59,853 nucleotides of DNA from Escherichia phage KS_A8. The stretch lies in the sequence record PP627279.1; one strand, given 5' to 3'. Under the pieces are notes generated by a model that was not told where the DNA came from, searched no databases, and was given only the letters and a program-made list of their open reading frames with translations. The position numbers and the translations under genes are program-made. Position 1 is the stretch's first letter. Every line of letters begins with the position of its first letter. Below are positions 8,256 through 13,573 of the stretch, piece by piece.

Positions 8256-8704
8256 TGCTTGGATACGATTTCATTAATGATGCATTTAATAAGATGCTAC
8301 GCGAAGCAGTTGGACCGGATATCGGTATAGCGTGGAAGAATAAGAAGTTTACACCTAAAGCCAACCAGATGTGGTTAAAGGCAATCAATGCTCCCGCTTC
8401 CACTTACGCTGCAACGCTAGGTGATAACGGTCTGAATGAAATTCCAGGCTTCTACCAAATCACAGTATATAGTCCTTTAAACACTGGAACGTCTAAGCAG
8501 AATCAAATCTTGGATTCTATTCGGAAAAAGTTTAAACTGGGCTTGCGTATCCCGTGCCCGGATGACCACACGTTACGGATTGTCAGTTTAGACTTTTCGC
8601 AAGGTGGACAAACTTCGCTGAACGATTTTACCAAAGGCGGGGTTGAAGATAACTGGGACGTTAACTTTATCACAATCTATTGGTCGGCTCGTGAGCCGAG
8701 GTAA
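8255..8704 (+). CDS. tail terminator/completion protein (putative)
   Basis: 149 aa, directly upstream of the major tail protein gene; synteny only. Confidence 0.3.
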   Translation: MLGYDFINDAFNKMLREAVGPDIGIAWKNKKFTPKANQMWLKAINAPASTYAATLGDNGLNEIPGFYQITVYSPLNTGTSKQNQILDSIRKKFKLGLRIPCPDDHTLRIVSLDFSQGGQTSLNDFTKGGVEDNWDVNFITIYWSAREPR

Positions 8705-8718
8705 GAGAGGATCTAAAT

Positions 8719-9642
8719 ATGGCTACAGGTTCACGTTATTCGTGTTACTACGTCAAAGAAGATGTAAGCAACACTACGCCAGCGAGTGCGAAGTTTACTC
8801 CGTTCCGTGTCACCAGCTCCGGTCTGGACATTAATATTGCAACGCTGGAATCCGAAGAACTGCGCGATGACGCTGAAACTGCGGACTTCCGCCTCGGTGC
8901 TCGCAGTGTTGAAGGTACAGTAACGGGCGAAATGTCCTTCGGCACCTTCGATGATCTTATTGCTGCTGCACTTCGTGGGGAGTGGCAAGACAACGTCCTT
9001 AAAGGCGGTATTATCCGTCAGTCATTTACTTTCGTAGACTATAACGCAGATCTACCGTCAGGTAAATATACGATTTATCGCGGTTGCGAAGTTAATAGCA
9101 TGACTTTCTCATTGTCTGCGGAAAACATGACCACAGTGGAATTCGGTATTGTTGGTCGCTCAATGGAAATTGCGGAATCGCTCCCATCTGGTGCAACTAT
9201 CAAAGAGCGTACGACTACTTCACCGATGGATGGTTTCTCCGGTCGCTTGCTGGAAAACGACGAAGAAATCAGCGTTATTACGGAAATCGGTCTTACCGTT
9301 GAAAACGATATTGCACCGCGCTTTGTTGTTGGTTCTAAGTTCTCCATTGAACCGTCCGCTGGCCGCCGTGCGGTAACTGGTACAGCTAACGTGTACTTCC
9401 TGGATAACAAGCTGCGTATGAAGTATCTGGATGAAGTGGAAACTTCAATCAAGTTTGATCTGATTGACCCAAGCAATCCGGAACAAAAATACACTGTGGA
9501 AATTCCTCGCGTGAAATTCACTGAAGCTCCGCGTCCTATTGACGGTGAAGGGGATATCATGCTTAATATGGGCTACCGCGGATTGCTGGACCCAACAACC
9601 GCAAGTTCCATCAAAATTACCCGCGTTTTAGCGGCAGCATAA
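8719..9642 (+). CDS. major tail protein
   Basis: 307 aa, RBS GAGAGGA, upstream of the chaperone/tape-measure pair. Confidence 0.55.
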   Translation: MATGSRYSCYYVKEDVSNTTPASAKFTPFRVTSSGLDINIATLESEELRDDAETADFRLGARSVEGTVTGEMSFGTFDDLIAAALRGEWQDNVLKGGIIRQSFTFVDYNADLPSGKYTIYRGCEVNSMTFSLSAENMTTVEFGIVGRSMEIAESLPSGATIKERTTTSPMDGFSGRLLENDEEISVITEIGLTVENDIAPRFVVGSKFSIEPSAGRRAVTGTANVYFLDNKLRMKYLDEVETSIKFDLIDPSNPEQKYTVEIPRVKFTEAPRPIDGEGDIMLNMGYRGLLDPTTASSIKITRVLAAA

Positions 9643-9651
9643 GGATAAGAA

Positions 9652-10059
9652 ATGACCGACACCAAAAAAGGCAAAGTTGCAGTAGCTAAAAGCTTCCGTG
9701 ATTTTAAAACTGTGAGCCGGGCAAACGACCCGGCAAACACTAAGCCTATGAATGTGGTTATTCCTGGTGTAGGCGACACTGGTGAAAAACTCTACATTCG
9801 TAGCCGCTACTGCACAGAGTATCGTGACGCAGAATTGAAAGCACAGCGTCAACTGTTGGCGCTTATGCAGGGTAAAGACGGTGAAGTAACGGATGCTATG
9901 AAGGAAGATATCCTTACCCGTTCACTGTGTAACCTTGTAGCAGGTTGGACTTTTGACGAGCCACCGACTGTTGATAACGTGTTTGAGTTCTTAACGGAGA
10001 ACCCAACTGTCCGAGAAGACCTTAACGTATTTGCCGCTAAAGATAGTAATTTTTTCTAA
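9652..10059 (+). CDS. tail assembly chaperone (gpG-like)
   Basis: 135 aa, directly upstream of the tape measure; ends at slippery heptamer T_TTT_TTC. Confidence 0.55.
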   Translation: MTDTKKGKVAVAKSFRDFKTVSRANDPANTKPMNVVIPGVGDTGEKLYIRSRYCTEYRDAELKAQRQLLALMQGKDGEVTDAMKEDILTRSLCNLVAGWTFDEPPTVDNVFEFLTENPTVREDLNVFAAKDSNFF

Positions 10060-10457
10060 AAGCGCGCAGACAGTTAATTGATAAGAAGATCCTCCAATGG
10101 GAACTAAATAGTAAAGTCCCCGGCGGGGGATCTTCTTTATTATCGCAACTGCAAAAGGTTGAGGAACAGTCTGGTAAGACGCCCCCTAAGCTTAAAGAAT
10201 ATCGGGAAAAGGAAATACCGCTTTGCTTCGAATATCTATCTACTTTATTTGATGATATCTACACTGGAGGAGATTTTAGTTATACAGAATTGCACAGCTA
10301 TCAAGTGACAATGGGCTTACATCTTCAACCGTACGAATGCGAAATACTGCGGCAGCTATGGCTTGAAAAGCGCGTGTCAGAAGCTGAACAAAATGCTAAA
10401 CTCATGGAAAGTCAAATGCAAAATCAAAATAAAGGTAGAAGAAAAAGGAGAAGATAA
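9652..10457 (+). CDS. tail assembly chaperone -1 frameshift product (gpGT-like)
   Basis: The -1 frame is open from the slippery site T TTT TTC (10050-10056) to TAA at 10455-10457, which overlaps the tape-measure ATG; inverted repeat AAGAAGATCC...GGATCTTCTT lies downstream of the slip site. Confidence 0.45.
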
Positions 10458-13400
10458 TGGCCGAAACCGCTTCGCTAGTAATCAGAGTTGACGCGAGAGG
10501 GATTAGTACCGCGGACTCTATGTTGCGGAACTTAGCGCGTACAGGTGACACAGCGGAGCGGTCTGCTCAACGTGTTACCTCCAGCTATAAAACATTGTCT
10601 AACACATCTAACGAACTTGCAACTGTCACAAGTCGTTTAGATGCTGCAATTGTAGGAATGATTAGCGTCGACACCATTAACCGTGTTATTTCGCTATCGG
10701 ACTCCTGGACTATCCTCACCAACAAACTTGAACTGGCTCGTACGGGTAATGAAACCGTTGCGGATGCGCAGCAACGCGTGTTTGATATTGCCCAGCGGTC
10801 ACGTACAAGCTTGGAAGCAACTGCAACTCTGTACTCCCGTCTCCAGCGTGCGATGAAGAATACTGGTATGACTGGTATGGAGCTTGGACGTATCACGGAA
10901 ACAATCAACAAAGCAATGATCGTTTCTGGTGCAACATCCCATGAAGCAAGTGCTGCCCTTATTCAGTTTTCGCAAGCAATGGCATCCGGTGTTCTGCGTG
11001 GGGATGAATTCCGCTCTGTTGCAGAACAAGCCCCGCGCTTAACTCAAATTATGTCCGATTCGTTAGGCGTTACCATTGGACAATTGCGTGAGCTGGCGTA
11101 CAGCGGAAAGTTAACTGCAGATGTGGTTATCAAATCGTTGTCTGGTGCTGCGGATACAATTGATAAAGAATTCAGCCGCACTATGCCAACGTTCAACCAG
11201 CAATGGACGGTTGCAACAAACAACTTGACTAAGTTTATGGGTGAATCCCAAAAGACTCAAGGTGCGGTCGCTGCATTGGGACAGACGTTTGTTGCATTAT
11301 CCGAAAACTTAGGAACGGTTGTAACGGTTGGTTCAGCTTTAGCCACAGTGATTACCGCCCGTATCATTACGGCAATGCTTGCTAAGACTAAAGCGTCTAT
11401 AGCTGCTGCAAAAGCATCGCAGATGGAAGCTGCACAAACTGCGGCAACTACGGCGGTGATGCAAAGCTCTATTGGCGTTACCGCACAGAAAGCGGCTGCG
11501 GATCGTGCTGCTTCGCTTGCTGCGTTACAGGTTGCTCGCGGGTCATTAGCGGTTGCTAAGGGTACGGCAGCGGAAGCGGGCGCACGTCTTGCCCTTATTA
11601 ACGCTACCCGTGCGCATTCTGCGGCAATTATGGCGGACGTACAAGCGCGGCAAGCGCTCAATGCTGCTCTTAATGCAACTGTACCAGCCGCAAGCCGGGC
11701 AGCTACAGCAATGAGCGTGCTGCGCGGTGCTATGGGGTTAATTGGTGGTCCTGTTGGTGTAGCAATGCTGGCAGCGGGTGCAATTTACTCCTATAAAGCG
11801 TCGCTGGAAGCAGGTCGTGCGGAAAACAATCAGTTTGCGGATAGTGTTGATTCTGTACGCGAGAAACTGATGCAAATGACGGAAGCTCAGCTGGCAGCTA
11901 ACGCGGTCAAAGCTAGAGCAATCCTTCCGGAACTTGAAGAGCAAATGAAGCGGGAGCAGACCGCTTTAAAATCTGCTACAGAAACACAGAAGTTCTATGA
12001 AGCACAATTAAAACGCCGTGCCGCGTCCGGTCGTGATACAGCTAGTGCCGAGAAGAACTTACAAATCGCAACGGATAACGTCAAGCTTGCTGCCGAGCGT
12101 GCTGAAGAAGCTCAACGCCGTTACAACAATGTCTTAGAAATGACAAGCCCTGCTATCGAGAAGATAATTCCGTTAGCTCGTCAGCTTGCTGCTGATATGA
12201 AGGCCGTTCTTAACATCAAATCCGGTCCACTTATTGACGAGAAAGTCCTTGACCGTTTTAAAGGTCAGCTAGGTGATGTCAACCGTGAGATTGATGTTAA
12301 CACGGTTAAGGGTGCTGGCAATGCTCGCCAAGCTGCAATCCTTAGTGGACTGTATCAGACGCTGGGCAAGGATGCTGATACATACGGAAGTCTTATTCGC
12401 AAAGTAGCTATGGGTCAGGACGTTAGCTCAGAGGCAACAAGCGAATCCGCTAAAGAGCTTGTTAAATATGCTCAAGATTTAGCCCAAGCTCTTGGCAAAA
12501 ACTACGATCTTGAAGAAGCAGAGAGAAACCGAACTAAAGCGACAAAAGACGGTATTAAAGCAGAACAACAGAACGCCAAAGTTATTGACGATTTACGCAA
12601 TAAGCTTAACGAAGTAACCACAGGGGTTAAGGAAAACGCCAAAGCGAAAGCGCAAGCGGTAGCACTTAATAAGCTCAATGCGTCTGCAACGGCTGCGGAA
12701 AAAGCAGAAGTCGTTAGTCTTGCTGCTGCAATCTACGATGCAGAAGAAGCTCAAAAGAAACTGGACGAGCGTAAGAAGAATCGTAAAGCTGCCGAAGACT
12801 TGTTAGGGGAAGGTAGAACAGACTACGCTAAAATTGAATACGAAATGCAAGAAAAGATCATGAAGCTTCATAGGGATCAAGAAGCAGATGACCTTGAGCA
12901 TTACAAACTGTATGAGGATGCTAAGACTCAAGTATTGGCGCAAGCTAACCTTCAAAGGGAAAACCTGAATAAAGTTCTTATGAACAGGATGATATCCTTT
13001 TCTCAGGACTCGTTAGGAATTATAATGGATGGTCTGTCACAGGCTGTAAGCCAGCAGAACTTCTTTTATAAAGCCATGTTTGCCGCGCAGAAAGCAATGC
13101 AAATTCCGTCAATCCTTGCTAACACGGAAACAGCCGCTTCAGCAGCCCTTGCATGGGGTACGCAGCAAGGTGGGGCTACAATGGGCGCGACAATGGCAGC
13201 GATAGTGAAGACTATGGGCTATGCGTCTGCCGCTACTGTGGGTGGCCTAGCAATCGCGGGTATGGCGCACGATGGCATTGATAACGTTCCGCGTGAAGGT
13301 ACATGGTTGCTGGATAAGGGTGAACGTGTACTTAATGCTCCGTCTAATGACAAGTTAAATCGCTTCCTGGATAGCCAAGCTTCACAACAAGGTGGCGTGA

Positions 13401-13573
13401 ATATGTCCGGTGGTGTTAGCATTGTTCAGTATATCACGGTGCAAGGAAATGGCGATGCAGCACTCACACAAGCCATGCAAAAAGCAGCCCGTGATGGCGC
13501 TGAGCAGGGATATAATAAAGTTCTTAATGACTTTGCATCCCGAGGAACAATTCGTAGAACTGCAATGGGGTAA
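10457..13573 (+). CDS. tail tape measure protein
   Basis: 1038 aa, Ala/Gln-rich helical protein with long low-complexity coiled-coil segments; position after the chaperone pair. Confidence 0.85.
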   Translation: MAETASLVIRVDARGISTADSMLRNLARTGDTAERSAQRVTSSYKTLSNTSNELATVTSRLDAAIVGMISVDTINRVISLSDSWTILTNKLELARTGNETVADAQQRVFDIAQRSRTSLEATATLYSRLQRAMKNTGMTGMELGRITETINKAMIVSGATSHEASAALIQFSQAMASGVLRGDEFRSVAEQAPRLTQIMSDSLGVTIGQLRELAYSGKLTADVVIKSLSGAADTIDKEFSRTMPTFNQQWTVATNNLTKFMGESQKTQGAVAALGQTFVALSENLGTVVTVGSALATVITARIITAMLAKTKASIAAAKASQMEAAQTAATTAVMQSSIGVTAQKAAADRAASLAALQVARGSLAVAKGTAAEAGARLALINATRAHSAAIMADVQARQALNAALNATVPAASRAATAMSVLRGAMGLIGGPVGVAMLAAGAIYSYKASLEAGRAENNQFADSVDSVREKLMQMTEAQLAANAVKARAILPELEEQMKREQTALKSATETQKFYEAQLKRRAASGRDTASAEKNLQIATDNVKLAAERAEEAQRRYNNVLEMTSPAIEKIIPLARQLAADMKAVLNIKSGPLIDEKVLDRFKGQLGDVNREIDVNTVKGAGNARQAAILSGLYQTLGKDADTYGSLIRKVAMGQDVSSEATSESAKELVKYAQDLAQALGKNYDLEEAERNRTKATKDGIKAEQQNAKVIDDLRNKLNEVTTGVKENAKAKAQAVALNKLNASATAAEKAEVVSLAAAIYDAEEAQKKLDERKKNRKAAEDLLGEGRTDYAKIEYEMQEKIMKLHRDQEADDLEHYKLYEDAKTQVLAQANLQRENLNKVLMNRMISFSQDSLGIIMDGLSQAVSQQNFFYKAMFAAQKAMQIPSILANTETAASAALAWGTQQGGATMGATMAAIVKTMGYASAATVGGLAIAGMAHDGIDNVPREGTWLLDKGERVLNAPSNDKLNRFLDSQASQQGGVNMSGGVSIVQYITVQGNGDAALTQAMQKAARDGAEQGYNKVLNDFASRGTIRRTAMG

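Follow-up and report, generated by a model that had tools for sequence, protein, structure and literature searches.

The DNA analysed here, a stretch of 59,853 nucleotides from Escherichia phage KS_A8 (record PP627279.1; "the window" below means this whole stretch), very probably encodes its tail assembly chaperone in two forms, a short protein, G, and a longer one, GT, in which a −1 frameshift near the end of G would join it to a second reading frame, T. We put the probability of a Seuratvirus recoding site for the G/GT tail assembly chaperone at about 0.9. The site itself, the geometry of the frames around it, protein-level selection on the −1 frame and a conserved slip motif held in phase are all seen in the sequence. 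The elements concerned, all on the plus strand, are as follows.

9652 to 10059, plus strand: G, the short tail assembly (tape-measure) chaperone, 135 amino acids, 15.2 kDa, by standard decoding, with its stop TAA at 10057–10059.
10044 to 10049, plus strand: TAG TAA, a pair of stops in the −1 frame, from −1-frame translation and the table of frame openings.
10050 to 10056, plus strand: the slippery heptamer T_TTT_TTC (U_UUU_UUC in the mRNA), read from the sequence.
10056 to 10457, plus strand: the T extension, −1 frame, 133 codons plus TAA, from translation and from matches to Pfam Phage_TAC_18 and phrog_569.
10079 to 10142, plus strand: a conserved RNA hairpin within the T coding region, with core arms at 10083–10095 and 10125–10137.

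The geometry of the slip site is simple. The C terminus of G reads K D S N F F stop, the last codons being AAT TTT TTC TAA, so that the ending over T TTT TTC at 10050–10056 claimed in the initial annotation is what the sequence says. Relative to the G frame the heptamer is in X_XXY_YYZ phase, and it is followed directly by the 0-frame TAA. The −1 frame is closed by the TAG TAA pair; from 10050 it is open over 135 codons, up to TAA 10455–10457, and because of the pair, entry into the T frame is confined to 10050–10059. The last A of the T stop is the first base of the tape-measure ATG (10457–10459, a TAATG overlap), and here too the translation agrees with the earlier claim of a −1 frame of about 135 codons overlapping that start. 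A stop-free −1 frame arose in only 1 of 20,000 dinucleotide-preserving shuffles of 10050–10454, and the two remaining frames contain 4 and 16 stops over the same interval. The predicted GT protein, join(9652..10056,10056..10457), has 268 residues, a mass of 30.9 kDa, an isoelectric point of 8.5 and the junction ...DSNFF|LKARRQ.... As a separate observation, TTTTTTC is depleted in the window on both strands, with 8 copies against 21.4 ± 4.5 expected and all of 100 dinucleotide shuffles higher, as would be expected if slippery runs were avoided everywhere except at the G/GT site.

The −1 frame overlaps the end of G, and its 5' part lacks both a start codon and a ribosome-binding site. Its initial 80 codons include no start of any kind, the first being TTG 10290 and then ATG 10311, and no Shine-Dalgarno sequence precedes either of these. 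G and the tape-measure gene each have one: AAGGA at 9641–9645 for G and, for the tape-measure gene, AAAGGAG, which falls within the 3' end of T, where T encodes a basic C-terminal tail (…KGRRKRRR). The start-less region 10057–10289 (233 nucleotides) nevertheless varies as a coding sequence would. Among 11 close Seuratvirus sequences and the window, its variable sites are distributed 2/3/24 over the three −1-frame codon positions (15/7/45 when the more distant STP-SP5 is added), with 8/7/39 over all of T, and this third-position bias shows purifying selection on the region as a protein in the −1 frame. For comparison, G itself shows 12/5/66 among close relatives. The Phage_TAC_18 match begins at about 10158, upstream of both candidate starts, and the codon directly past the heptamer is where homology to relatives starts, as in FF-LKARRQLID (window), FF-LRSREKLID (9g) and FF-QIARKQLID (Vid5). 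An alignment of 12 G–T fusions is unbroken over the junction, and both phenylalanines of the slip site are invariant or nearly so.

The arrangement extends well beyond the genus. We assembled 16 relatives from GenBank phage records and 68 metagenomic contigs from IMG/VR that encode relatives. The −1 frame is open from within G to the tape-measure start in 16/16 of the GenBank relatives, and T_TTT_TTC is found at the homologous Phe-Phe codons of 9g (Nonagvirus), Vid5, Kpn2-P2, STP-SP5, PSTCR7, Baskent_P4_1, PMBT28, R7M, Ab19 and ZQG1, whose hosts include Providencia (PSTCR7), Salmonella (PMBT28), Alteromonas (R7M) and Pseudomonas/Stutzerimonas (Baskent_P4_1, Ab19 and ZQG1). In several of these phages the G stop lies 30–100 nucleotides further downstream; thus, a stop adjacent to the heptamer is not a requirement of the family. 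In the IMG/VR set, T lies −1 to G wherever G is detectable, and 59 of the 68 loci have an in-phase canonical X_XXY_YYZ heptamer of one of four kinds: T_TTT_TTC (39 loci), A_AAA_AAG (8), A_AAT_TTT (10, in 8 of which it is the sole heptamer and in 2 of which T_TTT_TTC occurs too) and T_TTT_TTA (4). An in-phase T_TTT tetramer stands at the same Phe codon in 8 of the 9 loci that lack a heptamer. A motif whose identity changes at fixed phase and position is the signature of tRNA re-pairing.

Two further observations concern the distribution of these sites. A distant branch of loci (L073, L081, L084–L086 and L088–L090; L065, L074–L078, L082 and L083) carries A_AAT_TTT or only T_TTT at the homologous Phe codon; examples with the tetramer read GCC AAT TTT ATC and GCG GTT TTT ACC. 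In this branch the G stop comes about 7 codons later. Sites of this kind would be low-efficiency or non-canonical slip sites. The TAATG overlap of the T stop and tape-measure start is present in the Queuovirinae relatives examined (L004–L010) and in PSTCR7, and absent from Kpn2-P2.

Several other explanations of the two-frame layout have to be weighed against ribosomal frameshifting. Several GenBank records annotate a 48-residue or TTG-started coding sequence within T, as if T were a separate small protein made from an internal start (ATG 10311 or TTG 10290) with no frameshift at all. This is very unlikely in view of the 233 preceding nucleotides, which have no start codon and yet vary 2/3/24 by −1-frame codon position; moreover, the Phage_TAC_18 and phrog_569 matches begin well upstream of 10290, neither start has a Shine-Dalgarno sequence, and homology to relatives (FFL+AR+QLID) runs from the first codon past the heptamer. 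A second possibility, improbable in our view but the least so of the three, is that RNA polymerase adds one U to the run of six, so that standard translation of the altered message yields GT. That −1-frame products can arise through transcriptional slippage is established (PMC5009743), the resulting protein would be identical, and the T run, six residues long in the window and seven in 9g and K4PH164, is a homopolymer of the kind that suits a slipping polymerase. The phase of the sites speaks against it: the ribosomal X_XXY_YYZ register is kept in 59 of 68 loci and would be irrelevant to a polymerase, and the A_AAT_TTT sites (10 of 68 loci, 8 as the sole heptamer) and the loci with only T_TTT are poor polymerase substrates but valid ones for tRNA re-pairing. 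Efficient slippage by Escherichia coli RNA polymerase also requires longer runs, of about 8–9, than the six T residues present here.

The remaining alternative, to which we give almost no credence, is that the frame break is an assembly error, or the mark of a decaying gene, and that the true gene is a single open reading frame or a dead remnant. Homopolymer runs do commonly carry sequencing indels. However, 34 independently sequenced phage genomes match the stretch over its full length, the junction is identical in 11/11 Seuratvirus loci examined base by base, and the two-frame layout is kept in distant relatives and in the 68 metagenomic contigs; decay is countered by the purifying selection on both G and T. 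More generally, because the identity of the motif varies while its phase and position stay, sequencing artefact and RNA-polymerase slippage are both disfavored, and ribosomal frameshifting is the reading that we carry forward.

By this reading, the majority of ribosomes would translate G and terminate at the TAA at 10057–10059. A minority would slip by −1. The best-supported route is tandem slippage of two tRNA-Phe with UUU and UUC (10051–10056) in the P and A sites; alternatively, the P site would hold UUC and the A site UAA, a codon that is decoded slowly. The heptamer is known as a frameshift-prone sequence in E. coli (PMC4066793). Both tRNAs would re-pair on UUU UUU at 10050–10055, and decoding would restart at CUA (Leu, 10056–10058) and continue for 133 codons to TAA 10455–10457, giving the GT fusion (...DSNFF-LKARRQ...) of 268 residues. 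That the fusion is produced, in what amount and in what role, we infer. If the lambda system is a guide, G and the G part of GT would coat the tape-measure protein, the T part would recruit the tail-tube protein, the efficiency of frameshifting would set a low GT:G ratio, and the virion would contain neither G nor GT. In lambda, a G:GT ratio of 30:1 is crucial (Atkins et al. 2016, PMC5009743).

The following points weigh against this account, most of them touching its efficiency. In a systematic E. coli study, frameshifting on U_UUU_UUC was 0.12% when the motif had no stimulator, 0.89% when it was combined with those of IS911 and 7.6% when the IS3 pseudoknot followed it (Sharma et al. 2014, PMC4066793 supplement); the motif is thus weak without a stimulator, and a classical stimulator is not present here. 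There is no Shine-Dalgarno-like stimulator within the 30 nucleotides 5' of the heptamer, and the only strong downstream structure begins 22 nucleotides past it. Because of these three features the efficiency is possibly low, and it could be very low unless the adjacent stop or the hairpin assists. We found no fusion-protein experiment for Seuratvirus in the literature, the Seurat paper just naming a "tape measure chaperone." On the side of protein families, G scores below threshold against Pfam Phage_TAC_4 (E 0.051; 14.2 bits against a cut-off of 21.1), so that its placement among the chaperones comes from PHROG only, and a sequence search for relatives of solved structure returned none, the sole match being a designed repeat protein.

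The context of the locus and the remaining profile matches fit a chaperone. The window belongs to Seuratvirus (Queuovirinae), with nucleotide identities over the stretch of 98.8% to WildeMaa and 97.5% to Seurat, and G and T sit on one strand between the genes for the tail tube and the tape-measure protein, the position expected of gpG/gpGT:

8719 to 9642, plus strand: major tail tube gene, 307 amino acids (Pfam Phage_tube_2, E 3.8e-41; phrog_290, E 2.3e-81), the upstream neighbor of G.
10457 to 13573, plus strand: tape-measure protein gene, 1038 amino acids (Pfam TMP_3, E 1e-59; phrog_339, E 1.1e-179).

G matches positions 11–126 of phrog_569 (E 4e-25) and also phrog_313, "tail assembly chaperone" (E 3.6e-11). 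T matches Phage_TAC_18 over T residues 37–106 (38.8 bits, cut-off 27) and positions 129–256 of phrog_569 (E 4.4e-47). Since this one profile of 256 positions matches first G and then T, phrog_569 was built from contiguous G–T proteins. Across the family, Phage_TAC_18 matches 12/12 members, and Phage_TAC_4 matches 4/12 at E ≤ 0.01, with a best value of 1.9e-4. Assignment to the family was made through these PHROG and Pfam chaperone profiles. As to nomenclature, "tail length tape measure protein" is the label that the chaperone bears in RefSeq and in PHROG 569.

The same frameshift is already annotated in near-identical phages, whose chaperones are the same gene. Seurat (KM236243) and SA80RD (OL960575) have joined "ribosomal slippage" coding sequences in GenBank, with the slip at a position equivalent to 10053 of the window and a product of 268 residues. 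These entries (CPT_Seurat13/14, "tape measure chaperone," KM236243.1; SA80RD_14/15) share with the window 97.3–97.5% nucleotide identity in the region, 98–100% protein identity in T and the same heptamer. They show no substantive difference from the window, being the same gene in other isolates, and their slippage annotations are predictions. Of the near-identical genomes examined, they are the only ones to carry the joined form. WildeMaa, CSP1C, KurtStettler, SeppeHuegi and Greed are annotated with a coding sequence of 48 residues from the ATG equivalent to 10311, Skure has a TTG-started T, and further near-identical genomes leave T unannotated, as the Nonagvirus records examined do the frameshift. 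In another relative, HdK1 (L011, 1589–2697), the tape-measure gene is annotated as two overlapping coding sequences (1589–2425, and from 2409 onward), and the T frame extends 9 nucleotides beyond that of 9g; an indel or sequencing error in the record may be the cause.

The closest functional parallel is lambda gpG/gpGT, where two overlapping open reading frames lie between the major tail and tape-measure genes and ribosomes that slip by −1 on a heptamer close to the 3' end of the first frame make a long chaperone in addition to the short one (PMC5009743, summarizing Levin, Hendrix and Casjens 1993; Xu, Hendrix and Duda 2004, 2013, 2014). The window has the same two-frame layout and the same access through a −1 heptamer. 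The details differ: lambda uses G_GGA_AAG, read by tRNA-Gly and tRNA-Lys, whereas the window has U_UUU_UUC, read by two tRNA-Phe; and, unlike in lambda, the 0-frame stop abuts the heptamer, the −1 frame opens exactly there, and a strongly conserved hairpin stands 22 nucleotides downstream. We know of no report of a required downstream structure in lambda G/GT. The locus has every gpG/gpGT feature that can be tested in sequence, as defined by lambda and generalized by Xu, Hendrix and Duda (2004). The initial annotation had called this the conserved gpG/gpGT arrangement, and on comparative evidence the description holds for the window and its relatives alike. Among other phages, the Nonagviruses (9g, JenK1, JenP1/2 and SE1) are also Queuovirinae and share the T_TTT_TTC TAA junction, the TAATG overlap and a hairpin at the same codons; they differ in T, with about 36% protein identity, and in the hairpin, whose sequence is entirely different and whose 3' arm is shifted by 5 nucleotides. 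The E. coli cassettes (dnaX, IS911 and IS3) resemble the window in having an X_XXZ_ZZN heptamer followed by a stable structure within the mRNA. In those cassettes, however, the structure starts 4–10 nucleotides past the motif, often with an upstream Shine-Dalgarno sequence, whereas in the window it starts at +22 (or +14) with no such sequence upstream.

The remaining element is the hairpin downstream of the slip site. Its core is an inverted repeat of AAGAAGATCC (10083–10092) and GGATCTTCTT (10128–10137), which lengthens to an imperfect pair of 23 nucleotides (10083–10105 with 10115–10137); the 10-bp repeat reported in the initial annotation is therefore real, with its end at 10137, one base beyond the 10136 given there. 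In the predicted fold, a long 5' arm at 10079–10095 pairs with 10125–10142. The same source had placed an inner hairpin within the repeat. Its sequence, CCCCGGCGGGGG, is present at 10118–10129, but in the predicted fold the partner of its G run is a CCUCC in that arm, and its CCCC run pairs with UGGG at 10098–10101; because these runs pair elsewhere, the mini-hairpin is an alternative that competes with the extended stem and not a part inside it. The stem starts 22 nucleotides past the heptamer and 20 past the G stop, and a start at +14 is reached only through a weak, non-conserved lower helix.

The structure is unusually stable and unusually constant. The fold of 10057–10156 has a z-score of −5.1, with 0 of 200 shuffles as stable, and 10080–10149 is the most extreme of 280 windows over 8700–11570 (2.9 kb). 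In the 12 Seuratvirus sequences compared, among them STP-SP5 with 75% nucleotide identity over T, none of the 14 third positions in the arms varies, whereas 63 of 104 do elsewhere in T (Fisher p = 8e-6); when every codon position is included, the figures become 0 of 46 and 110 of 312 (p = 1.7e-8). The interval 10039–10128 is the least variable of the G–T region. A search of Rfam gave no match, only two far-sub-threshold results on the opposite strand (mir-1002, 24.8 against 85 bits; RAGATH-25, 20.4 against 49 bits), and the arm sequence occurs nowhere else in the window besides its own partner. The second most extreme fold in the scan, a 70-nucleotide window at 9740–9809 inside G (z −5.2), is probably not a conserved structure: in a context of 91 nucleotides its z is only −1.45, and its columns vary freely among relatives.

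Structure at this place recurs in relatives that share little of its sequence. In Nonagvirus the same codons form a hairpin, though of unrelated sequence, and there are equivalents in the Kpn2-P2-like phages and Vid5 (in locus coordinates, L008 1230–1276, L010 1230–1276 and L007 about 1231–1285). Among seven Nonagvirus genomes, five hairpin sites are variable, four of them in loops and one a change of G-C to G-U. Between Nonagvirus and the Kpn2-P2 group, 2 of 8 outer pairs have both bases replaced (C-G to U-A, A-U to G-C), and 97.5% of cells are paired, against 29–60% in slid controls; the two groups are effectively two clades, so that these amount to about two compensatory events. In a family-wide survey of 37 non-redundant loci, the mean z of 60-nucleotide windows falls as low as −1.8 at +24 nucleotides, the background being about −0.26 (Wilcoxon p = 6.5e-5), and a window with z < −3 lies near the slip site in 54% of the loci, against 10.5% of background sets. 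The mean folding energy of 45-nucleotide windows is lowest for starts at +27 to +33, with a smaller dip at 0 to +6. Family-wide, the enrichment in structure therefore lies some 25–30 nucleotides past the heptamer. RNA-level selection on structure downstream of the slip site is thus well supported by comparison of sequences.

Stimulatory hairpins start 4–10 nucleotides past the motif, by definition in the E. coli study (PMC4066793), and spacers are usually 5–9 nucleotides and in a minority of cases 12–15 (Atkins et al. 2016, PMC5009743). The conserved stem here, from 10079, begins 22 nucleotides past 10056, outside the range for a 3' stimulator of the dnaX, IS3 or IS911 type; because of this spacer, a classical stimulatory role is unlikely and should not be assumed. 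A collision of ribosomes does not fit either: by our own arithmetic, a ribosome halted at the base of the hairpin puts the P site of the trailing one about 10–15 nucleotides upstream of the slip site. The hairpin could be an mRNA processing or stabilizing element or an attenuator. One version of this idea, to which we give real weight at clearly less than even odds, is that it has nothing to do with frameshifting and acts in mRNA processing or stabilization, or as a partial terminator, where expression drops from the abundant head, tube and G proteins to the scarce tape-measure and tip proteins. Besides the long spacer, its position favors this, just past the expected fall in ribosome traffic and 20 nucleotides after the G stop; a T-rich tract follows it in the window, and a simple scan flags 10116–10131 with CTTCTTTATT as terminator-like. 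On the other hand, in distant relatives the structure trails the heptamer even where the G frame continues for 30–100 nucleotides, so that all ribosomes translate it there, and throughout the family the enrichment of structure keeps its place relative to the slip site. The positional equivalents in 9g and Kpn2-P2 lack a U tract, which rules out intrinsic termination as the shared, conserved role. The other possibility, rather unlikely, is modulation across a long spacer: the hairpin, about 22–30 nucleotides past the heptamer, would influence G/GT frameshifting, or the pausing of ribosomes just after the shift, from a place beyond the channel by which mRNA enters the slipping ribosome. In its favor are the synonymous invariance of the arms in Seuratvirus, the rebuilding of a hairpin from other sequence in Nonagvirus and its allies, and the enrichment of structure at such a distance in the 37 family loci.

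In general, the frameshift described here adds nothing new to the established G/GT paradigm. Its immediate consequence is for annotation: in the window the tail assembly chaperone should be entered as join(9652..10056,10056..10457), and the many sister genomes in which T is stubbed or omitted (WildeMaa, CSP1C, Greed, CAjan, 9g and others) can be corrected likewise. The hairpin is the one modest lead, an element under RNA-level selection that stands at an unusual distance from its slip site, recurs in a diverged chaperone family and follows a weak motif. If it does act as a long-spacer modulator, this could explain how a motif that supports only 0.12% frameshifting alone reaches a useful GT:G ratio in these phages.

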